64,000 nucleotides of DNA, taken from Gemmatimonadota bacterium (GTDB lineage Bacteria > Gemmatimonadota > Gemmatimonadetes > Palauibacterales > KS3-K002). A model generated the notes under the pieces. The model was given only the letters and a program-made list of their open reading frames with translations. It did no database searches and had not been told where the DNA came from. The stretch is taken from assembly GCA_039586495.1 (NCBI GenBank), contig JBDHKG010000033.1, positions 5,689 to 69,688 of the forward strand, read 5' to 3'. Shown one piece after another: positions 1-23,420 of the stretch (position 1 is its first letter; each line of letters starts with the position of its first letter). The translations under genes and the position numbers were made by a program.

Positions 1-454
1 GCTGTTCGCCTGGGTCTATGAGACCGCAGCTGCGGCCCCTTTCCACATGGGCACGGTCGAGGCGCCTCACTACCGACGCTACTGGTTCCAGCGCAAGCTG
101 AAGGAGGGTGCGTCGGCGGAAGAGCTGAGCAAGCTGGCGATGCGGATGGGATTCGGCGTGCGAGACGGGAACGGTGTGATCTTCGTCTCGCACAAGGGCG
201 AAGTCTTCCCTGCCGGTTTCTTGCCACACCCTCTGCTCGGGAACGTGCGCGAGCAACGGCTCTCCGTGATCTATCGGGAATCCCCTCACCTGGCGGAGCT
301 TCGCGACATGGACCGGCTGAAGGGCAAGTGCGGCCGCTGCGAGTTGCGCTGGCTGTGCGGCGGCTCCCGAGCCCGCGCCTACGGGATGACGGGCGACCCC
401 ATGGAATCCGACCCTTTCTGTGTCTACGAGCCGACGGCCGGCGACGGCGGCTGA
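1..454 (+). CDS. Radical SAM/SPASM-domain protein, C-terminal fragment (5' end upstream of window)
   Basis: Frame of listed ORF 47..454 is open from the window edge. The C-terminal Cys cluster GKCGRCELRWLCGGSRARAY...DPFCVYEP is typical of SPASM/twitch auxiliary Fe-S domains. Confidence 0.65.
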   Translation, partial: LFAWVYETAAAAPFHMGTVEAPHYRRYWFQRKLKEGASAEELSKLAMRMGFGVRDGNGVIFVSHKGEVFPAGFLPHPLLGNVREQRLSVIYRESPHLAELRDMDRLKGKCGRCELRWLCGGSRARAYGMTGDPMESDPFCVYEPTAGDGG

Positions 455-545
455 GCAGGACCGCCCGCTGTCCCTTCCGGGCTCCGGCGGCTGTATATTG
501 AGCCTGAAGCCGCAGCACGATCTTAACAGACAGGCGCGCAGTAGG

Positions 546-917
546 ATGGGAATCGGCAACATCGGCTGGACGGAGTTCTTGGTCATCCTGGCCATCGCGC
601 TCATCTTCTTCGGGCCGCGCCGCTTGCCCGGCATCGCCCAGGCCATCGGTAAGAGTCTGCGGGAGTTCCAGAAGGCACTCAACGAGGTCAAGTCGGAGAT
701 CGCCGAAGCCGGTCGCGAGATGGAGGAACGGCCCGGCCCGGTGATCAGGCCGCCCGCACTGGCGCCCCCGCCGGAAACGACCAGAGAAGCGGAGGCGACC
801 GTCACCCCACAGCCGCCCGAGGAACCAACCCCAAGCCAGTCGACCGGGGGCAACGCCGCGAGTTCAGACAAAACGGAAACGAGTAATGCAGACCCTTCAG
901 ATCCGCACCTCGCGTAG
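546..917 (+). CDS. tatA: Twin-arginine translocase subunit TatA/E
   Basis: Internal ATG at 546 of ORF 420..917 gives MGIGNIGWTEFLVILAIALIFFGPRRLPGIAQAIGKSLREFQKALNE. This is the canonical TatA TM helix, FGP hinge and amphipathic helix, followed by a long Pro/Glu-rich tail. Confidence 0.85.
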   Translation: MGIGNIGWTEFLVILAIALIFFGPRRLPGIAQAIGKSLREFQKALNEVKSEIAEAGREMEERPGPVIRPPALAPPPETTREAEATVTPQPPEEPTPSQSTGGNAASSDKTETSNADPSDPHLA

Positions 918-1287
918 AGCAGAGCTGGTCGATATCACGGCGCAGGTCCGCGATGCGGTGCACAAGACCGCTGTCAGCGAGGGCGTGGCCCACCTATGGT
1001 CCTTTCACACCACATGCGGTCTCACGGTCAATGAGGGCGCCGACCCTGACGTGGCACGCGACATCGCCTGGAAGCTCGGCGAACTGGTGCCGAGAGACGA
1101 CTCTTCCTACCAGCACGCGGAGGGGAACTCGGATTCCCACATCAAGACCAGCCTGATGAACCCGGGGGCGACTTTGCTCGTCACGAACGGTGATATCGCG
1201 CTGGGTACCTGGCAGGCCGTCTTCCTGGCGGAATTCGACGGCCCCAGGCTCAGAAAGGTGGGAGTGCAGGTCGTGCCCGCAGCCTAG
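886..1287 (+). CDS. YjbQ/UPF0047 family protein (secondary thiamine-phosphate synthase-like)
   Basis: 133 aa with family motifs DIT..V, HTTCGLTVNEGADPDV, EGNSDSHIKTSL and GTWQAVFLAEFDGPR. Overlaps the tatA tail by 32 nt. Confidence 0.8.
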   Translation: MQTLQIRTSRRAELVDITAQVRDAVHKTAVSEGVAHLWSFHTTCGLTVNEGADPDVARDIAWKLGELVPRDDSSYQHAEGNSDSHIKTSLMNPGATLLVTNGDIALGTWQAVFLAEFDGPRLRKVGVQVVPAA

Positions 1288-1928
1288 CGCGAGGACCTCT
1301 GCCCAACGTCGCTGCGGCCGCCTGCCTCGCCGACGGCCTCGCGAAGCTGCTCGTAGCCTTCTTTCCCCAGGATCTCCTTGAACTCGCAGGCGTACGCGTC
1401 GATCGCTCGTGTCGAGCCATCAAAGGCTAGCGTACAGCAGCGGCGGACGCCGTCGCACAGGTCATCGAACTCCACTCGCTCAAACGACGTGACCAGTGGA
1501 AATAGGCGGCAGTAGAACGGCTTGAGGCGCACGCCCTCCGCCAGAGCGAGATCCGGCTCGATCAGCTGAAGAGTGCACAGCCCGTCACGGTTCAGAAACG
1601 CGCACTTGCCGTTGTAAACCGCCGTGCCGATGCAGAGGCCGCCAGGGTAGTCCTCGTCTCTTTCGATTTCGTCCTCGAACCACAGGCTCGTATCCCAGGT
1701 CTGGCTGTCATCCAGGCCCGCCTGGATACGGCCCGCGCAAGCCAGGATACGGTCGCGCTCCTGCAACGAGACGTACACCCCATGACGGCAGCAGTGACCG
1801 CCGCACTCCTCAGGTGCGTTGGACGGTCCACCACCTTCGATACAGCCACGCGCGACCATGCCTTGCACGGTCCACCGGCCGATCCGGATATCGTCGCTCT
1901 GCGGCGTGCTACGTTGGCGTGCTCGCAT
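1284..1928 (-). CDS. Cysteine-rich putative Fe-S/zinc protein (DUF3109 / YkgJ-like)
   Basis: Cys clusters CGGHCCRHGVYV, GKCAFLNRDGLCTLQ and FYCRLFPL resemble CxxCxxCC-type cluster proteins. The start codon is uncertain. Confidence 0.45.
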   Translation of the reverse strand: MRARQRSTPQSDDIRIGRWTVQGMVARGCIEGGGPSNAPEECGGHCCRHGVYVSLQERDRILACAGRIQAGLDDSQTWDTSLWFEDEIERDEDYPGGLCIGTAVYNGKCAFLNRDGLCTLQLIEPDLALAEGVRLKPFYCRLFPLVTSFERVEFDDLCDGVRRCCTLAFDGSTRAIDAYACEFKEILGKEGYEQLREAVGEAGGRSDVGQRSSR

Positions 1929-2100
1929 CCGCTGCTAGCCCTTGAACCTCGCCCGGCCGCAGGTCACCCGAGCTCCTCAACAAGCCTGTCCACGATGCCG
2001 GCTCTGTGCTCAACGCGGCGCCGACGCCGACCTCGCTCCCTGCGCCTGCAGCTGACCGGCTCAATCATACCACCCGCCCGAGAACGCTGAAAGCCCGGCG

Positions 2101-2949
2101 CTAGCGGGCCACCAGCTCCACCCGGCGGTTCTTGCCCCTACCGTCCTCGCTGGCGTTGCTGGCCACCGGAGCCAGGGGCCCAATCCCATGCGGTTCGAGG
2201 CGGCTCCGGTCGATGCCGTAGCGGCTCACCAGCGCCTCCACCACCGCCGCGGCCCGATCCCGGGAAAGCTCCATGTTGTGGTCGAAGCTGCCGGTGGCGT
2301 CGGTATGTCCCACCACAAACAGCTCCAGATCCGTGTTCTCCTCAAGCAGCTGGGCGATCTCTTGCAGGGTCGGCTCCGACTCCGGCTTGATCAGTGCCTG
2401 ATCCGTGTCAAACAAGATGCCGTACACCGCTACCTTGCCGGTGCGCTGAATATCCGCAACCATGGTCGCGGCGCTCGCCATCACCTGCTGGGTCATCGCC
2501 TTCTCTTCGACCACGGTCAGATCATAGGACTCGCCGCCGCTGAAGCAGTGGACGTGTATCCACGCACGGGCGTCCCCGCGGACCAGCTCCAGGTACACGT
2601 TGTAGTCATCACGAGAGACGATCTGCCCACCGGTCGCCTCGATAGCGTTGCTGTAGTTCCGCAGGACCTCCAGCTCGCTGGGCGGCCGCGCTCCCTCCTG
2701 GATCTCGTATGAGATACCGGTTTTGCGTCCCTCAACTAGAAACTCGTACCCCTCCGCGTCATAGAACTCGTACTGGTCGAACTCCCTGAAGTCGCAGTCC
2801 TCGATGTAGAAGCCTGACATCCGGGTGAGCAGCGGGTGATCCTCACAGCCGGCCGCGTCCTGCTGCGCCATGGACCCGCCGGGCCCTGCGAGCAGCAGGG
2901 CCAAGACAAGCATCGAACCTCTCCAATAGTGACACATGATGCCCTCCAC
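2101..2949 (-). CDS. OmpA-family protein with signal peptide
   Basis: N-terminal hydrophobic signal (LVLALLLAGPGGSMA). C-terminal OmpA domain VGHTDATGSFDHNMELSRDRAAAVVEALV...GRGKNRRVELV. Confidence 0.85.
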   Translation of the reverse strand: MEGIMCHYWRGSMLVLALLLAGPGGSMAQQDAAGCEDHPLLTRMSGFYIEDCDFREFDQYEFYDAEGYEFLVEGRKTGISYEIQEGARPPSELEVLRNYSNAIEATGGQIVSRDDYNVYLELVRGDARAWIHVHCFSGGESYDLTVVEEKAMTQQVMASAATMVADIQRTGKVAVYGILFDTDQALIKPESEPTLQEIAQLLEENTDLELFVVGHTDATGSFDHNMELSRDRAAAVVEALVSRYGIDRSRLEPHGIGPLAPVASNASEDGRGKNRRVELVAR

Positions 2950-3224
2950 AGGGGTTGTCCGCCTCGCGAAGCGTCTCGCTCAGTCACAGCTCTACCATGA
3001 ATCGTGGTCCGATCGGCGACGAGAAATGGCCCGACGACGAGGACTCGCTCTCCCGAACGCGCACGTCCTCGATGCAACGGCAGATGGCGTCGCTCTGCAC
3101 GGGGGCGCGCTGTGACGTACGCGGCCTCAGGGTCGCGGGGCCAATACACACTGTCCAACCGATTGTCCTGTATACAATTACGCCACAGGGGTGCCCTGTG
3201 GCCGGCGCACACATAGGTCCTGGT

Positions 3225-3590
3225 TCAGGATGAGGTGGCCGGCGACTCGACGCCGGTCTTCCAGAGACCCAGCAGGTAGGGGTCGTACTCCTCAGGATTC
3301 CGTTTGTAGTCTTCAGCCCAGGACTCGAAGTCCGGCAGGGCCAGATAACCCATCAGCTGCTCGACGAGCAGCGTCACGAGTTGTCTGAGGTTCAAGGCGC
3401 CTTGCTCAGCGCCCGCCCTCTCTTCCGCCGCCCTGGCGAGCTCGAAGACCCGCTCCTCCTCGAGTTCCATGAAGACATCGCAAACTCGAGCGGAGCAGTA
3501 GTCCAGGTACTTCGCCCGCAGAACTTCTTCCGGCTCGGCCCCCGACCTGTGGGGCTTCGGCGGCTCGCCCTTTCCCAATCGCCGCGCCAT
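3225..3590 (-). CDS. Hypothetical protein
   Basis: Internal ATG (3588-3590) of ORF 3225..3641 is preceded by a strong GGAGGAGGGGAGC Shine-Dalgarno. Composition is acidic and helical. No family recognised. Confidence 0.45.
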   Translation of the reverse strand: MARRLGKGEPPKPHRSGAEPEEVLRAKYLDYCSARVCDVFMELEEERVFELARAAEERAGAEQGALNLRQLVTLLVEQLMGYLALPDFESWAEDYKRNPEEYDPYLLGLWKTGVESPATSS

Positions 3591-3744
3591 GCTCCCCTCC
3601 TCCGCAAAGGGCGACCACGTCGCAACCTCGCAACAGGTCACCTGCGCCCATGCTAAAACCCCTGAGGCGGCAGGTCAAGGAGCGCTGGCTTGTGGCGGGA
3701 ACAAGCGTTAGCGAAGGCCTTCGGCGGGGGGGAGGGCCGGCCGT

Positions 3745-3966
3745 CTACGTCAGCTCAAGAGACGACTCAAGGGACGACTCCCAAGGCGACGCAGACGGCC
3801 GGTGCAGGGCCGTCACGCCCTGCAGACGAGCGAACACCGCTCGCCGGACTAGCCCATAGGCCAAAACCCTCTCCAAGAACTCGGGATCAGTCTCTTGAAG
3901 GCGCTCCACCTCGTCAGCTAGATCGCACGGCAAGTTCACAACGAGGCTGACTGATCGTGACTCCAT
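3745..3966 (-). CDS. Hypothetical small protein (possible ribbon-helix-helix-like)
   Basis: 73-aa ORF with a beta-alpha-alpha-like pattern VSLVVNLP / DLADEVERLQ / EFLERVLAYGL. Weak evidence only. Confidence 0.3.
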   Translation of the reverse strand: MESRSVSLVVNLPCDLADEVERLQETDPEFLERVLAYGLVRRAVFARLQGVTALHRPSASPWESSLESSLELT

Positions 3967-4377
3967 CCAGTTGGGTCCTTCAGGTTTGAGGGCGCACTAC
4001 GGCCACGCCAAGATGGCCACAAGAATTACAAATTTATCGGAATGGGCTGCCCTGCAGAGAATCCCCGGACAAGATCCGTAGAGCAGCAACGCTACCTCGA
4101 AGCGCGCCCATTATACACGCGAGGGATCGGGCACGCAAGTCCCAGAGGCTTCGAACGTGCGTTCGATGCCCGGTCTTTAAAGCATTGCACTACAACGACT
4201 TGCAACGATGGCCGCACCCGCGGCCGCCAGCGAATTTTGCAGAAACTTCTGATACGAAGATTGCACGTTTTCCTAACGCAACCTCTTATCGCACGCGAGA
4301 TGCGCGTTCCGAATTTTCGAAACCTCTGTATGGCACCGGCCTGATTTTGAAAAAATTTGCGAGCCTAGGCAATCCAT

Positions 4378-6945
4378 TCACAAGAGTTCGAGCACCTCGC
4401 GAACAGCGTTCGCATCTGAACGACACGCAACCCAAAGATCACCCACAGCTTGCAGGCGCGAACCCATCGATCGCAGCGAGAAGTCTTCGGGCTCGAACTC
4501 ATCTTCGAGTTCCCGCCAGGCAAGGGGAGCGGAGACGGTCGCGCCCGGCTGAGGTCGGACCGAGTAGGCCGACGCCACTGTGGACCCCTGCCGATTCTGG
4601 AGGAAGTCGAGATAGACGCGCGCGCCCCGCTTGGAGACCACTCGTTGCACGGTGGTGAGCTCAGGGAACGACCTGGCGACCAGACTGGCAATGAGTTCCG
4701 CCAGCAGGCGGCCCGTCTCGTAGCTGGTGCCGGCCTGGAGCGGGATGACGATGTGGATTCCTCTGGCTCCGGACGTCTTGGGGTAACCTCTGAGCCCGAG
4801 CCGCTGGAGCTGTGCGCGGACGGCAACTGCCGCCTCGCGGACCCTGGAAAAGGCTGCGCCTTGGCCGGGATCCAGGTCGAGAATGCTGTAGTCGAGGTCA
4901 CCCAGACTACCGAGCCGAGACGGCCAGACGTGCTGAGAGATGGCGGCTAGCTGCGCAGCGTAGAGAAGCGTGTAGAGGTCGCCCCCGATAAGCCGGTCGA
5001 CCTGTTCCCCCTCGATTTCGATTCTAGCGGTGCGCACACCCTCGGGGATGGACTCGGGCGCCCGCTGCTGGTAGAAGGCCTCACCCGTGATCCCGTTGGG
5101 GTAGCGCTCCAGAGTGAGAGGCCGATCACGGAGTACAGGCAGGATAGCAGGTGCGACGGAGACGTAGTACCGCAACATCTCCCCCTTGGTCGCCCCCATC
5201 TCTGGCCAGAATACCTTCCGCAGATTAGTGACCCTGAGCCGTCGCCCCTCCAAGACGACCTCGCCGTCCTGCCCTGATCGCTCCAGAGCCTCGAGCGTCT
5301 GCAACAACGACTGCAACTCCGACGTGAGCTGAACCGCCGGTCCGCGCGCTTCCCGGAGGGGCAGGCTCTCGCGAACGACGCGCACGGGGTCCACATCAGC
5401 GCGCAAGCCGAGGAAGACCGGTTGACGGAGCCGACCGTCGCGTGTCCACTCCTGGAACTTGACCTCGGCGACCAGCTCCGGGCGAACCCAGTGGACGTCC
5501 CTGACGTCGTCGGGGGTCTCAGTGCAGGCGCAGGATTCCCGCTCCAGCCTGACGACTCTGTTTGAGATCTCACTGAGATCGGCCTCGCTGAAGCCTGTGC
5601 CGACCCGGCCCGCGTAGCGCAGCCGTGGACCGTCAGGGGCATCCTCGTGGTAGCCGAGCAGCAGGGCGCCGAAGCCGCGGCGGCCACTCTGGGGCTCCGT
5701 CCAGCCACAGATCACGAACTCCTGCCGCGCCAGCTCCTTGACCTTTACCCAGTCCTGAGTCCGCTCGCCGGACCGGTAGCGGCTCTTCAAGCGCTTGGCG
5801 ATGACGCCCTCCCACCCCTCACGGCGCGCGCGTTCCCGCATGGCACCGCCGCTGGCGACATCGTGGGAGACGTAGTGCAGGCGGTGGCCGGCCGTCTTGA
5901 GGAGCGACCGCAGCCTCTCCTTCCGATCGGACAGGGGTCGCGCCCGCAGATCCTCGCCGTCGAGCCAGAGGAGGTCGAAGAGGAAGAGCTCAGCAGGTTG
6001 CGCTCTCGCCCACTGGGCAATCTCCCTCGGCTCGCGGAGATTGAAGCGCGCCTGAAGATCCTCGAAGCGCGGCCCATGTTCGCTGATGGCCGCGACGATC
6101 TCTCCGTCCACCACGAACCCGTGGCCCGACCGGCAAGCCAGCAGCTCCAGAGCCTCCGAGATCTCAGGGAAAGCCAGCTCGAGGGGCTGCCCGCGTCGCG
6201 AGTAGATCCGCACCGCAAGGCCGGGCTGCGCCCAGCCCAGTGCACGCACGCCGTCCAGCTTCGGCTCGAAGCACCAGGCCTCCCCGTCAGGGAGCCCGTC
6301 GCTGGGTTGAGCCAGCATGGGCCGCGTGTCCACGGGAGCCACCCTCTGATCGGACGTATCGACGGCTGAATCTTCGGCGAGCATCGGGTCGCCCAGTCTG
6401 CGGCCCGATACCAGCGAATCGTGGAAGCGTTCGACCAGTCCCTCCGGCTGGCCGGGCTCGGCGTAGGCGTCGCGCTTCTTGATGAGCAGCCAGCTCTTGT
6501 CGCCCTCCCGACCCTTCATACGCACGAGCGTCCAGCGGCCGCGCATCCGCTCACCGAACAGCACGAAGTCAAGCTTGCCTTCCCGCAGCCCACGGTCCAG
6601 CGCCTCGTCGGACTTCTCGGTCTCCCCGACCGGTTCGTAGCTGCCGCGATCCCAGATGATCACCACCCCGGCACCGTACTCGCCTTCGGGGATCGCGCCC
6701 TCGAAGTCGCCGTACTCCAGAGGATGGTCTTCCACCTCCACCGCCAGCCGCTTAGTCCCCGGGTCAGCGCTGGGCCCCTTGGGCACCGCCCAGCTCTTCA
6801 GCGTCCCAGCGATCTCCAGGCGCAGGTCGAAATGGGTCCGGCGCGCCGCATGCTTCTGAACCACGAAGCGCCGCGCTGCACCACCCGGTGGCTCGGGCGT
6901 GCGAGAGAAGTCCCGTTTTTGCCGATAGCGCTCGATGTCACTCAC
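4378..6945 (-). CDS. ligD: ATP-dependent DNA ligase LigD, three-domain form (phosphoesterase-ligase-polymerase/primase)
   Basis: 855 aa. The N-terminal 3'-phosphoesterase signature is RFVVQKHAARRTHFDLRLE. The ligase adenylation motif is EPKLDGVR. The C-terminal primase-polymerase domain contains YPKTSGARGIHIVIPL. Lies adjacent to ku. Confidence 0.9.
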   Translation of the reverse strand: MSDIERYRQKRDFSRTPEPPGGAARRFVVQKHAARRTHFDLRLEIAGTLKSWAVPKGPSADPGTKRLAVEVEDHPLEYGDFEGAIPEGEYGAGVVIIWDRGSYEPVGETEKSDEALDRGLREGKLDFVLFGERMRGRWTLVRMKGREGDKSWLLIKKRDAYAEPGQPEGLVERFHDSLVSGRRLGDPMLAEDSAVDTSDQRVAPVDTRPMLAQPSDGLPDGEAWCFEPKLDGVRALGWAQPGLAVRIYSRRGQPLELAFPEISEALELLACRSGHGFVVDGEIVAAISEHGPRFEDLQARFNLREPREIAQWARAQPAELFLFDLLWLDGEDLRARPLSDRKERLRSLLKTAGHRLHYVSHDVASGGAMRERARREGWEGVIAKRLKSRYRSGERTQDWVKVKELARQEFVICGWTEPQSGRRGFGALLLGYHEDAPDGPRLRYAGRVGTGFSEADLSEISNRVVRLERESCACTETPDDVRDVHWVRPELVAEVKFQEWTRDGRLRQPVFLGLRADVDPVRVVRESLPLREARGPAVQLTSELQSLLQTLEALERSGQDGEVVLEGRRLRVTNLRKVFWPEMGATKGEMLRYYVSVAPAILPVLRDRPLTLERYPNGITGEAFYQQRAPESIPEGVRTARIEIEGEQVDRLIGGDLYTLLYAAQLAAISQHVWPSRLGSLGDLDYSILDLDPGQGAAFSRVREAAVAVRAQLQRLGLRGYPKTSGARGIHIVIPLQAGTSYETGRLLAELIASLVARSFPELTTVQRVVSKRGARVYLDFLQNRQGSTVASAYSVRPQPGATVSAPLAWRELEDEFEPEDFSLRSMGSRLQAVGDLWVACRSDANAVREVLELL

Positions 6946-19652: not shown

Positions 19653-20873
19653 GTGGGAGTGGCGCCTATGCGACTGCGTGACCTGCGGCTAGGCCCCGGC
19701 GTCATCGTTGCCGCGGCCTTCATCGGGCCTGGCACCGTCACTACAGCGACCGTGGCGGGCGCCAACTACGGGTATGCCCTGATCTGGGCACTTGCGTTCT
19801 CCGTGGTGGCAGCCCTCGTGCTTCAGGAGATGTCAGCGCGTCTCGGTGTGATCGGCGGCATGGGACTCGGCGAAGCGATGCGGCGCCGGTTCCACGGCCG
19901 GCTCGCGCGCTTGGCGTCCGCCGGGCTGGTGATTGGCGCCATTCTGGTCGGCAACGCGGCATACGAGACGGGCAACCTGCTGGGGGGCGCCCTCGGGCTG
20001 GAGGAGCTGGTTGGCGGCAGCGGCCGGCTGTGGAGCGCTGGCCTGGGGCTGCTCGCCTTCGCCCTGCTCTGGTCAGGCCGCTACAGGTGGGTGGAACGGG
20101 TCTTGGTGGGGATGGTCGCGGTCATGGGGATCGTTTTCCTGACGACGGCGGTTGCGCTGCGGCCGGATCTGAGCGGCCTGCTGGGCGGGCTGCTGCCCAG
20201 CAAGCTCGACGATCAGGCGGCCATGCTCACGGCGTTGGGCTTGGTCGGGACGACCGTGGTTCCTTACAACCTCTTCCTGCACGCCTCAGCCGTACAGGAG
20301 CGCTGGCAGGGGGAGGCACATCTCGAGGCTGCGCGCGCCGACACGGGCATCTCCGTGACGCTGGGCGGCGTCATCTCCATCGCCGTGCTGGTCACAGCGG
20401 CAGCGCTCCCGGCGACGCTGAGCGTGTCAAGCGCAGCTGACATGGCACAGGCGCTCGAGCCGCTGCTGGGCCGCTGGGCAGGGGCGTTCTTCGCCTGTGG
20501 GCTGCTGGCTGCGGGTTTGTCCTCGGCCATTACCGCGCCGCTGGCGGCGGCGTATGCCATGTGCGGCGTGCTCGGTTGGCAGGGCGGGCTCCAGGCGCCG
20601 CGCGCTCGGCTCGTATGGATCGTGGTTCTGGGGGCCGGCGTGCTGTTCTCGGTGCTCGCGGTGCGGCCGGTGCCCGCGATCATGTTCGCGCAGGCGGCGA
20701 ACGGCCTGCTGTTGCCGATCGTCGCTGGGTTCCTGCTCTACCTGGCCAACGACCGGGGTCTGCTGGGGGTCCGGGCGAACGGTCGAGCCAGCAACGTCTT
20801 AGGCGTCGTGGCGGTGGTGGTGGCGGCGATTCTGGGTCTACGATCGTTGTTTGGGGCACTTTTTGGGTTGTGA
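19653..20873 (+). CDS. NRAMP-family membrane transporter (non-canonical, YcsG-like; lacks DPGN motif)
   Basis: About 11 TM helices. TM1 reads FIGPGTVTTATVAGANYGYALIW instead of the canonical DPGN. Start could be GTG 19653 or ATG 19668. Confidence 0.75.
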   Translation: MGVAPMRLRDLRLGPGVIVAAAFIGPGTVTTATVAGANYGYALIWALAFSVVAALVLQEMSARLGVIGGMGLGEAMRRRFHGRLARLASAGLVIGAILVGNAAYETGNLLGGALGLEELVGGSGRLWSAGLGLLAFALLWSGRYRWVERVLVGMVAVMGIVFLTTAVALRPDLSGLLGGLLPSKLDDQAAMLTALGLVGTTVVPYNLFLHASAVQERWQGEAHLEAARADTGISVTLGGVISIAVLVTAAALPATLSVSSAADMAQALEPLLGRWAGAFFACGLLAAGLSSAITAPLAAAYAMCGVLGWQGGLQAPRARLVWIVVLGAGVLFSVLAVRPVPAIMFAQAANGLLLPIVAGFLLYLANDRGLLGVRANGRASNVLGVVAVVVAAILGLRSLFGALFGL

Positions 20874-20890
20874 GCCGCAGTGCGTTCGGC

Positions 20891-20919
20891 TTGATTGGGT
20901 GGGCGGGGGCGCATATATT
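20891..20919 (+). promoter_or_regulatory. Sigma-70-like promoter for rpmH/rnpA (TTGATT-N17-TATATT)
   Basis: The -35 element TTGATT (20891-20896) and the -10 element TATATT (20914-20919) are separated by exactly 17 nt. This is an AT-rich match in a GC-rich intergenic region just upstream of the rnpA GTG and rpmH ATG. Confidence 0.45.
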
Positions 20920-20939
20920 CGGGCCGCTCTTTCTGAACC

Positions 20940-21503
20940 GTGAGAAGTCTTTGGCTGGCAACGTCATCGGGGGGCCGACCCCATGAAACCGACGTACCGT
21001 CCTCGGAATCGGAAGCGTCTGCGCAAGCACGGCTTCCGAGCGAGACGAAGAACCAAGACGGGCCGGCAGGTGCTGAGGCGGCGCCGCCGCAGGGGCCGGA
21101 AGCGGCTGGCGGTGACGGTCCCCAAGAAATAGGCCGCGCCCGGGGCCGCTATCGGTTCCCAAGAGGTGCGCGGATCCGACGAAGGTCGGAGATACGAGAG
21201 GCGGTGCGCCGGGGGAAGCGGAGGCGAACGAGTTGCCTCGAAGTGTTCGTCACCGATTCCCCCGCTTTGCGTCCACGCTTGGCGCTGGTAGTGCCGAGGC
21301 ACGGGCGCAAGATTGTGGAGCGGAATCGGCTCAAGCGGAGGTTGAAGGAGGGCGCGCGGCTGGAGCTGTTGCCCCGCTGCCGTGACCGCGGAGCGGCTCT
21401 CGACATCGTGATCAGGGCGCGACCCCAGGCCTATGAGGCCCAGTCGCGCCAACTGTTGAATGAGATTGCCGGACTTGCGGAACAGCTATGCTCAGAAGGC
21501 TGA
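20940..21503 (+). CDS. rnpA: Ribonuclease P protein component (start uncertain; the only canonical start lies upstream of rpmH)
   Basis: The conserved RnpA core is [32 protein letters not shown]...[19 protein letters not shown]. There is no ATG/GTG/TTG in frame between the rpmH stop and the conserved FPR motif. The frame is open back to GTG 20940. Confidence 0.7.
20983..21132 (+). CDS. rpmH: 50S ribosomal protein L34
   Basis: Not in the ORF track (49 aa). Hand translation: [49 protein letters not shown]-stop, the canonical L34 sequence pattern. Confidence 0.9.
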
Positions 21504-21700
21504 TGGTTATGCTGATCCGCGGCTATCAAGTCGCCATATCACCGCTGCTGCCGGCGTCGTGCCGCCACACGCCGAGCTGCTCGCAGTACGCAGTTGAGGC
21601 ATTGCAGCGGCACGGCGCCCTCAGGGGTAGCTGGCTGGCAGTGCGTCGTCTCTGCCGCTGTCATCCGTTCCGCCCAGGCGGCTACGACCCGGTGCCGTAG
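21488..21700 (+). CDS. yidD: Membrane protein insertion efficiency factor YidD
   Basis: [53 protein letters not shown] is the canonical YidD sequence. Confidence 0.9.
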
Positions 21701-21701
21701 T

Positions 21702-23420
21702 ATGGGTACGGAGAAGCGGCTCGTCCTGGCGGTCGTCTTGATGATGGCGGTCGTTTTCATCGTCAACATCCTCTTCCCACCGGCGCCACCGCCGGAACCC
21801 GCAGAGGAGGTGGAGACGGTTGCCGCGCCGGCTGAGGAGACCCCAACGCCCGGTGCCGAGGCGCTGGAGGCTCCTGCCCAGCAGCTACCGGCCGAGGAAG
21901 AGCTCGCCCTGCCGGCGTGGACGGGTCCTGCGGAACCGGAGACGGAGGATACCGTCTGGGTCACGAGCCCGCTCTACCGTCTGGGGTTCGCGCAGCGCGG
22001 CGCTCGTCTGGTCTCCGCCGAGATGCTGGAGTTCGAGTCGCTCGGCGCTGACACCAAGGGCGAGCCCGTACAACTGGTGCCGCCGCTGGCGGAGAACTTC
22101 TTCACCCACAAGTGGCTGGTCGGGGATGACACGCTGGATCTGCGGGGCGCAACCTTTGAGGCGCAGCCAGCGGAGCTGAGCCTCGGTACGACCAGCGCGC
22201 CGCAGGTCCTCACCTTCGTCTATCAGCATCCTCGAGTGCCATTCCGCCTGGAATTGCACTACACCTTCCATCCTGGCAGCTACGTGATCGAGCTGGAGGG
22301 CCAGCTGCTGGGCGTGCAGCCGATGGGATGGTGGACGCTGGGGCTGGGCCCAGGGCTGCTGAGCAACGAGTGGGATCCCGAGGGCGACTACAAGGCAAAC
22401 CTCGCGTTCACTGCGAAGGGCCTGAATGGTGTAAAGTCGCAGAAGATCGGCGGGCTGCAACCCGATCAGCGGGCGAGCCTCGACGGCCCCTTCGACTGGG
22501 TGGCGGTGCGCACCAAGTACTTCGTTACTGCGGTCGTGCTGCCGCTCGATGCAGCGAGTGATCGCCGTTTCGGCGGTGTGCTCATCACGGGTCTTTCGCA
22601 GCCGTACCGCGCTGAGGGGGACGCGAGCTTCGCGGTGGGTCGCGATGGCAGCTTCGCCTACACCATCTACATGGGGCCCCAGGACCACGGCCGGCTCTCC
22701 GCCGTAGGACACAACCTCGATCAGGTGACCCCCTACGGCTACAGGTGGCTACAGCCGATCCTCAGGCCACTGGCCGCCGCCATCACGACGCTGCTTGTCT
22801 GGATGCACAACACGCTGAAGCTCGGTTACGGGTGGATCCTCATCCTCTTCGGCATCGGCATCCGCGTCGTGCTTTTCCCGCTGTACCAGAAGAGCCTGCG
22901 CTCGCAGATGGCGACGATGCGCGTCCAGCCGCTGATGAAAGAGATCCAGGACAAGTACAAGAGTGATCCCCAGCGGTTGCAGCAGGAGATGGTCAAGCTT
23001 TATCGCGAGCACAAGATCAACCCGCTGGGCGGCTGTCTCCCCATGCTGCTTCCCTTCCCTATCCTGATCGCGCTCTTCTTCGTGTTTCGGGATACGATCG
23101 AGTTCCGAGGCGTTCCGTTCCTCTGGCTGCCCGACCTCTCGCGACCGGACCCGTTGTACATCGTGCCGCTGCTGATGGGCGCCTCCATCTTCGTGCTCCA
23201 GTGGATCAGCCAGCGCACGATGCCGCAGAGCAACCCACAGATGAAGATGATGATGTGGGTGATGCCGGTGATGCTGGTCATACTGTTCCTCAACTTCGCG
23301 TCAGGGTTGAACCTGTACTACGCGACGATGAACCTGGCGTCGCTGCCGCAGCAGCTCTATCTGGCCAAGGAGCGGCGCGCGGCGGCCTCGCAGCCGACGC
23401 CCGCGAAGGCGAAGAGCTGA
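21702..23420 (+). CDS. yidC: Membrane protein insertase YidC
   Basis: ATG at 21702 gives MGTEKRLVLAVVLMMAVVFIVNILF (TM1). Periplasmic domain, then the conserved C-terminal core with YGWILILFGIGIRVVLFPL, MQPLMKEIQDKYK and GGCLPMLL. Confidence 0.9.
   Translation: MGTEKRLVLAVVLMMAVVFIVNILFPPAPPPEPAEEVETVAAPAEETPTPGAEALEAPAQQLPAEEELALPAWTGPAEPETEDTVWVTSPLYRLGFAQRGARLVSAEMLEFESLGADTKGEPVQLVPPLAENFFTHKWLVGDDTLDLRGATFEAQPAELSLGTTSAPQVLTFVYQHPRVPFRLELHYTFHPGSYVIELEGQLLGVQPMGWWTLGLGPGLLSNEWDPEGDYKANLAFTAKGLNGVKSQKIGGLQPDQRASLDGPFDWVAVRTKYFVTAVVLPLDAASDRRFGGVLITGLSQPYRAEGDASFAVGRDGSFAYTIYMGPQDHGRLSAVGHNLDQVTPYGYRWLQPILRPLAAAITTLLVWMHNTLKLGYGWILILFGIGIRVVLFPLYQKSLRSQMATMRVQPLMKEIQDKYKSDPQRLQQEMVKLYREHKINPLGGCLPMLLPFPILIALFFVFRDTIEFRGVPFLWLPDLSRPDPLYIVPLLMGASIFVLQWISQRTMPQSNPQMKMMMWVMPVMLVILFLNFASGLNLYYATMNLASLPQQLYLAKERRAAASQPTPAKAKS

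Follow-up and report, generated by a model that had tools for sequence, protein, structure and literature searches.

An RNase P protein gene that probably starts upstream of rpmH and encloses it out of frame in a clade of Gemmatimonadota

Where does translation of rnpA begin when no start codon follows the gene in front of it? In the classical rpmH-rnpA operon of Escherichia coli, Bacillus subtilis and most bacteria, the RNase P protein gene rnpA carries a start codon of its own, placed 3' of the stop codon of the ribosomal protein L34 gene rpmH or a few nucleotides (nt) before it, about 3-8 residues ahead of the FPR/RL motif of RnpA. The stretch of DNA analyzed here (64,000 nt of contig JBDHKG010000033.1 from a Gemmatimonadota bacterium, hereafter the window) resembles the classical operon in its gene order rpmH-rnpA-yidD-yidC-mnmE, in the co-transcription that a lone promoter upstream implies, in the RnpA core fold with its RNR motif and, if the start proposed below is right, in a weak non-ATG start for rnpA (PMC9945441). 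It differs in having no rnpA start at the expected place, where a gap of 17 nt separates the rpmH stop from the conserved motif. The original prediction, made from the sequence of the window, was that rnpA starts upstream of rpmH and overlaps all of it, which would give RnpA an extension of 64 residues. Comparison of 38 relatives supports this reading, in which the same 150 nt would be translated in two frames. The features on which the argument turns are the following.

20940..21503, forward strand: rnpA open reading frame (ORF), 187 amino acids (aa), from GTG 20940 to TGA 21501-21503
20940..20942, forward strand: GTG proposed as the start codon of rnpA, at -43 relative to the rpmH ATG
20983..21132, forward strand: rpmH (L34, 49 aa), from ATG 20983 to TAG 21130-21132, entirely enclosed by the rnpA ORF and shifted by one nucleotide relative to its register
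21133..21149, forward strand: rpmH-rnpA junction, 17 nt, with no canonical start codon
20940..21149, forward strand: putative N-terminal extension of RnpA, about 70 residues (64 up to the rpmH stop), rich in Ala, Gly, Ser, Pro and Glu and net acidic
21150..21503, forward strand: RnpA core, from YRFPRGARI at 21150 to TGA 21501-21503, with the RNR motif at 21321-21329
21204..21206, forward strand: next in-frame GTG, rejected as the rnpA start and lying inside a predicted helix (residues 82-91)

The identities of both genes are secure. The rpmH product is a canonical L34, as had been proposed, and matches Pfam Ribosomal_L34 (PF00468) over the full model (1.7e-16; 60.3 bits against a cut-off of 25; model positions 1-44 of 44). 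The rnpA frame, whose codons begin one nucleotide ahead of those of rpmH (the -1 frame), matches Pfam Ribonuclease_P (PF00825) at residues 73-182, that is from nt 21156 (4.9e-17; 62.4 bits against a cut-off of 22.3; model positions 1-107 of 109), and the gene sits directly 3' of rpmH and 5' of yidD and yidC. Re-reading the frame places the YRFPRGARI motif 17 nt 3' of the rpmH stop, where about 18 nt had been given, and confirms that no ATG, GTG or TTG lies in frame between the motif and GTG 20940: the frame has a TGA at 20934-20936, is open from 20937, and offers GTG 20940 as its sole canonical start before GTG 21204. The whole rpmH coding sequence thus lies inside the rnpA ORF in a different frame, and what the original prediction said of the sequence holds throughout. 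Near-cognate codons in the rnpA frame are CTG 20955, ATA 21129 (overlapping the rpmH stop), ATC 21174 and ATA 21192.

The same layout is found throughout the closest relatives. Clade A, as we term them, consists of 38 non-identical rpmH-rnpA junctions taken from database relatives and from a metagenome scan; they were selected for an RnpA core identity of at least 59% to that of the window, with the extension ignored, and all members are uncultured metagenome-assembled genomes (MAGs) or metagenome contigs. In all 38, rpmH has 49 codons and ends in TAG, rnpA lies in the -1 frame of rpmH, and that frame is open across the entire rpmH gene. The junction is variable in sequence and in length (14-23 nt) and holds no canonical start in any of the 38, although TTG occurs at the F/L codon of the motif itself in two of them (L087 and L155). 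Every clade A genome has a canonical start within the open frame at -43 and/or -28 (counted from the rpmH ATG), and these are the only consistently start-like columns of the frame. The codon at -43 is GTG in 34 genomes, TTG in two (36/38 for the two codons together), CTG in one, and displaced by an indel in one. The three genomes without a usable start at -43 all have TTG at -28, and the nine without TTG at -28 all have GTG at -43. Across the clade, then, a start is present 5' of rpmH and a usable one is absent 3' of it.

An open frame that is translated should be protected from stop codons, and rpmH offers a direct way of seeing this. A stop in the -1 frame can arise only by T at an rpmH third position that precedes a codon beginning with AA, AG or GA, which we refer to as a risk site. 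Two controls were drawn from the same phylum, namely genomes whose rnpA is in frame 0 or +1 relative to rpmH and carries a separate start (n = 35) and clade D, a group of Gemmatimonadales described below (n = 30). In clade A, T occupies 0 of 313 risk sites, as against 242 of 1096 (22%) other third positions at which T is permitted; in the controls it occupies 22 of 333 (6.6%, frame 0/+1) and 16 of 210 (7.6%, clade D), and the difference between clade A and the controls is significant (Fisher p ~3-4e-7, with sequences treated as independent). Correspondingly, the -1 frame is open in 38/38 clade A sequences but in only 57% (frame 0/+1) and 60% (clade D) of the controls, and synonymous codon permutation gives an open frame in clade A at a rate of 0.24. 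For the window alone such permutation within rpmH leaves the frame open in 19% of trials (P = 0.19); given this value and the proportion of open controls, the open frame of a single sequence is weak evidence on its own, and it becomes significant only through the comparative data.

The avoidance of T can also be followed along the gene. When whole alignment columns are compared, T is found in none of the six columns that are always at risk, all of which nonetheless vary (C, G or A), and in 22 of the 28 non-risk columns (p = 7e-4). Arginine is encoded mostly by CGT at non-risk positions (23/38 and 28/38 at two columns), whereas CGT is absent at risk positions. Within the first 25 rpmH codons alone, T is present at 0/161 risk sites in clade A and at 14/147 in the control (p = 2e-5); this comparison used a smaller, first set of frame-0/+1 controls (n = 28), in which 14 of 19 stops fall within the first 41 nt of rpmH, where clade A has none. 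The frame is thus protected from the 5' end of rpmH, as expected if initiation occurs upstream of that gene. The prediction that the extension frame would stay open in relatives is therefore borne out. The accompanying expectation of suppressed synonymous variation in rpmH is not, at least in general form: third positions of rpmH carry about 1.0 bit of entropy, and only the changes that would create a stop are missing.

If translation arrives from upstream, coding constraint should be visible in the rnpA frame before any downstream start could act. In clade A sequences aligned on RFPR, the codons of R-[YF]-R-F-P-R-x-A-R-I vary almost solely at third positions, including switches of Arg between AGA and CGN, and this signature begins two codons before the R of the YRFPR motif. 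Variation so nearly confined to third positions indicates that R-[YF]-R-F-P-R-x-A-R is translated and that the start lies upstream of the motif. The five or six codons from the rpmH stop to this conserved block are variable and never start-like. Since the signature begins where it does and the junction codons do not resemble starts, translation in the rnpA frame would begin upstream of the rpmH stop; in the alignment, purifying selection on the protein is visible upstream of all candidate downstream starts.

These observations bear on an alternative that the original prediction had itself named as fatal, initiation at a non-canonical codon just 3' of rpmH. Ribosomes terminating on rpmH might re-initiate at or after its stop, at ATA 21129 or ATC 21174, both of which are present in frame, and the open frame through rpmH would then be incidental. 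A very weak start would suffice, as RnpA is needed at ~1% of the L34 level (PMC9945441), and the NCBI-sourced annotations of two relatives (P0039 and P0042) begin rnpA at the Ile codon that corresponds to ATC 21174. However, no junction codon is start-like across clade A. The position of ATA 21129 reads ATA in only 9 of 38 sequences and GTA in the other 29, according to whether the last Lys codon of rpmH is AAA or AAG, and this codon was rejected as a start for clade A. ATC 21174 was rejected as the sole start because it lies 3' of the translated conserved block, nine residues with a clear coding signature preceding it. The F/L codon of RFPR was likewise discarded: in clade D it is sometimes TTG or ATG, but also CTC, TTC or CTT (31 loci), and in the clade of the window it is TTC. 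Re-initiation would, moreover, leave the 0/313 stop-creating T unexplained, the 5' half of rpmH included, while clade D and the classical clades do carry such stops.

A case for re-initiation elsewhere in the phylum can nevertheless be made. Of the 147 unique junctions from Gemmatimonadota, nesting is seen in 67, invariably in the -1 frame; 60 are classical, and 20 have no canonical start or have one only inside rpmH. Most of these 20 belong to clade D (L010-L021 and L346-L382), which shares with the window the phylum, the -1 frame and the lack of a canonical start after rpmH. Its junction is shorter (5-8 nt), and in 28 of 31 loci a C precedes the rpmH TGA to give CTGA, in which a CTG in the -1 frame overlaps the stop; the codons before it are TCC, CGC, GCC, GTC and GGC. 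The -1 frame through rpmH carries stops in 11 of 29 clade D sequences, so the extension is not required there, and rnpA in this clade is likely to be translated by CUG re-initiation or translational coupling. The clade of the window, by contrast, ends rpmH with TAG, has no CTG at the junction and keeps the frame strictly open. Because near-cognate re-initiation seems active in clade D, we do not set its probability to zero for the window, but consider it unlikely there.

A start at GTG 21204, or at an equivalent downstream codon, would produce a protein of ~99-111 aa with the upstream motif outside it. This GTG is the first canonical start clear of rpmH, and the database proteins of several relatives (P0036, P0037, P0039 and P0061; 102-111 aa) are annotated in this manner, although their annotated starts conflict among themselves. 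The original prediction held that such a start would delete the conserved motif, and this is the case: about 18 conserved residues would be lost. A search of solved structures with the single sequence gave no match, but the clade profile matches 11 solved RnpA chains, with residue 4 of E. coli RnpA aligned to the F of FPR, and the lost residues align with the N-terminus and first helix of these structures. They include the invariant R72, P74, A77 and R78, and their codons show the third-position-only variation described above. An AlphaFold2 model computed with database homologues predicts helices at residues 82-91, 125-149 and 169-185 together with four strands, in agreement with the alpha-beta sandwich of RnpA and its N-terminal helix, and the core contains the RNR motif (within VERNRLKRR at nt 21315-21341; R128, N129 and R133 are invariant); GTG 21204 falls inside the first of the predicted helices. 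Initiation at this codon appears extremely improbable.

The consistent -1 register raises a different possibility, namely that translation starts at the rpmH ATG and that a -1 frameshift or other recoding event before the rpmH stop yields an L34-RnpA fusion. Such a mechanism would suit the very short junction and the -1 register of rnpA, which is common to all 67 nested cases. A distant relative (L020; QHUE01000069.1, 3262-3480) even has rnpA in frame 0, that is in the same frame as rpmH, with a single TAA between the two genes and no start before ERYPRRVRI; here readthrough, a fusion protein and an assembly error are all possibilities. The choice of register has, however, a simpler basis. The +1 frame of rpmH always contains two or three stops, which leaves only the -1 frame for nesting, and frameshifting is not needed to account for the register. 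When rpmH 3' ends (such as ccc aag aaa TAG, ccg aag aag TAG, ccc cac aag TAG) were inspected by eye, no slippery heptamer of the X XXY YYZ type was seen, although neither slippery sites nor downstream stimulatory structures were scanned for formally. A late shift would not require stops to be avoided over the first 25 codons, as the test on that region indicates they are, and a conserved start exists at -43/-28. We regard a fusion as very unlikely, if not quite as improbable as a start at GTG 21204.

Upstream of rpmH, the region in which the proposed start lies contains the following features.

20891..20919, forward strand: predicted sigma-70-like promoter TTGATT-N17-TATATT (boxes at 20891-20896 and 20914-20919), upstream of rpmH/rnpA
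20920..20939, forward strand: pyrimidine-rich segment of variable sequence that separates the -10 box from the GTG and lacks a Shine-Dalgarno (SD) motif
20940..20982, forward strand: leader block of 43 nt, at once the 5' leader of rpmH and, as proposed, the first 14 codons of the rnpA frame
20955..20957, forward strand: CTG at -28, a near-cognate codon in the window and TTG in 29 of 38 relatives

The promoter that had been proposed upstream of the GTG is the sole promoter-like match in 20600-21800, where 0.1 would be expected from shuffled sequences. Of the 20 relatives displayed, 19 share its TTGAT and ATATAT boxes, with a spacer of varying sequence; the exception is L086, which has TTGCTC for TTGAT. 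Conservation at the nucleotide level begins precisely at the GTG: per-column entropy in the clade alignment is 1.3-1.6 bits upstream of -43 and 0.3-0.5 bits downstream, and the leader of clade A has the consensus GTGAGAAGTCTTTGGyTGGCAACGxxATCxGGGGGxCGACCCC. As to an RNA element, only a GGG/CCC hairpin of five base pairs was found in the 43-nt leader, without covariation in the clade alignment; the leader matches no Rfam family, and the 5' region of the mRNA is no more stably folded than shuffled sequence (z = +0.8). In the relatives, rnpA may have a secondary start at the -28 codon.

A second nested clade within the phylum shows the same arrangement with another start. Its 22 sequences (L009, L022, L103-L116 and L171-L212) have a conserved ATG at -19 (ATGGAcTGGGC) and a 23-nt junction, with two exceptions: L119 has an in-frame TAA at +83 and L188 lacks the ATG. 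The nearest starts in nested Gemmatimonadota are at -28/-43 in clade A, at -19 in this second clade, and at -16 in some others.

Against this background we consider it likely that rnpA of the window starts upstream of rpmH and overlaps all of it, in an arrangement similar to that of Thermus. The sequences themselves establish the layout and its conservation, the selective avoidance of stops, a coding signature that precedes every downstream start candidate, and a junction free of start-like codons. Several points weigh on the other side. No SD motif precedes GTG 20940, although by a crude test SD motifs are no commoner at candidate starts than at interior codons of genes in the window, so that the absence is no strong objection. 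The leader from -43 to -1 shows no codon periodicity (entropy 0.33, 0.54 and 0.38 at positions 1, 2 and 3), and because it is conserved as nucleotides, conservation of the GTG is inseparable from conservation of an rpmH leader RNA; periodicity in the first 14, non-overlapping codons was accordingly dropped as evidence of translation. No constraint on the amino acids of the extension is seen in clade A. One clade A genome (L161) has a stop between -43 and -28, so its start would have to be the TTG at -28. Some Gemmatimonadota, namely clade D with its CTGA junction and L119, dispense with both an open extension and a canonical start, from which it follows that non-canonical initiation of rnpA exists somewhere in the phylum. 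Finally, the stop-avoidance statistics disregard shared ancestry by taking sequences as independent, a weakness that the column-level test and the two within-phylum controls lessen but do not remove. The use of GTG 20940 rather than, for example, CTG 20955 as the initiation codon, the transcription start site and the relative expression levels of the two genes are points that we infer.

If rnpA does start upstream, it would be a gene of 187 codons. Ribosomes would initiate on GTG 20940, close to where the rpmH transcript begins, and would meet the rpmH ATG 43 nt further on. Translation would then cross the whole of rpmH in the -1 frame and continue into the RNase P protein domain without new initiation. 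The shared 150 nt would be decoded as two proteins, L34 from a strong ATG and the much rarer RnpA from a weak GTG that lacks an SD motif. The extension would be an unstructured, acidic by-product of the Arg/Lys-rich codons of L34 read one base off, with selection acting only on the absence of stops. Its properties are in keeping with this: its net charge is -6 over 64 residues, as against +18 for the core, and AlphaFold2 gives a predicted local distance difference test score that stays below 50 over residues 1-67 and exceeds 90 in the core, so the extension is predicted to be disordered. The rpmH third positions, which are first positions in the rnpA frame, vary at about 1.0 bit, which implies that the amino acid sequence of the extension is unconstrained. 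In these alignments it behaves as a spacer that is free to change as long as no stop appears. Speculatively, an acidic disordered tail could mask the very basic RnpA core until RNase P RNA is bound.

Such a gene may have arisen when an ancestral start 3' of rpmH was lost and an upstream start took over. The takeover would have been easy: in this GC-rich phylum, more than half of the genomes happen to have an open -1 frame in rpmH, and none has an open +1 frame. On balance, we favor at least three independent replacements of the rnpA start in the Gemmatimonadota, by GTG at -43, by ATG at -19 in the second nested clade and by CUG within CTGA in the Gemmatimonadales, the first two of which would be true cases of a gene within a gene.

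The original prediction drew a parallel with Thermus, and the nesting there is real, although the spacing of the starts differs. According to PMC9841429, Feltens et al. (2003, PNAS 100:5724) showed that rnpA of Thermus encloses the whole of rpmH and that the two genes are both expressed; the two AUGs of AUGGAUG are believed to be served by a single GGAGG SD sequence, as an ambiguous initiation site; and rpmH/rnpA of Thermus is presented there, as of 2022, as the only described case. We re-read three Thermus loci, and in each the sequence is ATGgATG, with the rnpA ATG at -4 in the -1 frame and the ORF open to +485, including the RNR motif. As in the window, rpmH lies wholly in the 5' part of an extended rnpA in the -1 frame, and an acidic extension of ~60-70 residues rich in Ala, Pro, Glu and Gly (charge -3 in Thermus, similar to the values found here) precedes a normal core. 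The starts are 4 nt apart with a shared SD in Thermus but 43 nt apart with no SD in the window, where the two initiations would be spatially separate. Expression has been demonstrated experimentally in Thermus, whereas the case described here is known from sequence alone.

The Meiothermus and Deinococcales loci have stops in the corresponding frame. As Thermus belongs to a different phylum and each lineage contains classical relatives (Meiothermus and Deinococcales on one side, the 60 classical Gemmatimonadota junctions on the other), the data suggest that nesting arose in the window's lineage independently of Thermus. A survey of 83 rpmH-rnpA junctions from other phyla gave no clear nested case besides Thermus. 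The -1 register of rnpA is also seen in three Trueperaceae-like loci (L232, L233 and L287); in L232 and L287 no stop interrupts the frame for a long way upstream, but rnpA could start classically at a TTG immediately 3' of the rpmH stop, and we regard these layouts as borderline. Two overlapping frames initiated on one mRNA are also known from the ambiguous AUGUG/GUGUG start sites of E. coli pqiA, tamA and narQ (PMC9841429). In those genes one start directly overlaps the other, and the alternative ORFs are short or have no known function, while in the window the two products are essential proteins of known function with starts 43 nt apart.

Public annotations of the relatives conflict at this locus (P0036, P0037, P0039, P0042 and P0061). 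Where rpmH has been dropped, rnpA is given as 180-284 aa; where rpmH has been kept, rnpA is cut to 102-111 aa and starts at an Ile codon or at internal GTGs. One gene or the other is probably mis-annotated across much of the phylum, and a literature search turned up no paper that connects either rnpA or rpmH to this phylum. In bacteria, one essential gene of known function is very rarely nested completely within another in a different frame. The recurrence of such nesting in another phylum, with a different geometry of initiation, argues that the L34 gene is prone to overprinting in the -1 frame in GC-rich genomes. If the upstream start is correct, the Gemmatimonadota would provide a second and much broader instance of the Thermus phenomenon, and a natural series for overlapping genes that arise by migration of a start codon. 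The two nested clades (38 and 22 sequences), with their internal controls, could be used to study the birth of such genes.

The window has a GC content of 65%, and rpmH/rnpA-yidD-yidC-mnmE sits 3' of an Nramp gene. The gene that follows rnpA is as listed here.

21488..21700, forward strand: yidD (Pfam YidD, 3.3e-32)

Two starts may be considered for yidD: the ATG at 21488 would give a 16-nt overlap with rnpA, and a second candidate ATG (21503) overlaps the rnpA stop TGA (21501-21503) as TGATG. The yidC ATG (21702) lies one nucleotide after the yidD stop. Searches with YidC and RnpA assign the window to the Gemmatimonadota. In the closest public record, the MAG CP070823.1 (L007 and L008), yidC is in two parts, residues 314-571 being encoded at the start of the record (1-4774) and residues 1-288 ~2.6 Mb away on the opposite strand (2608731-2617594). 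The gene is intact in the window, and the split suggests a misjoin or an arbitrary cut of that MAG "chromosome".

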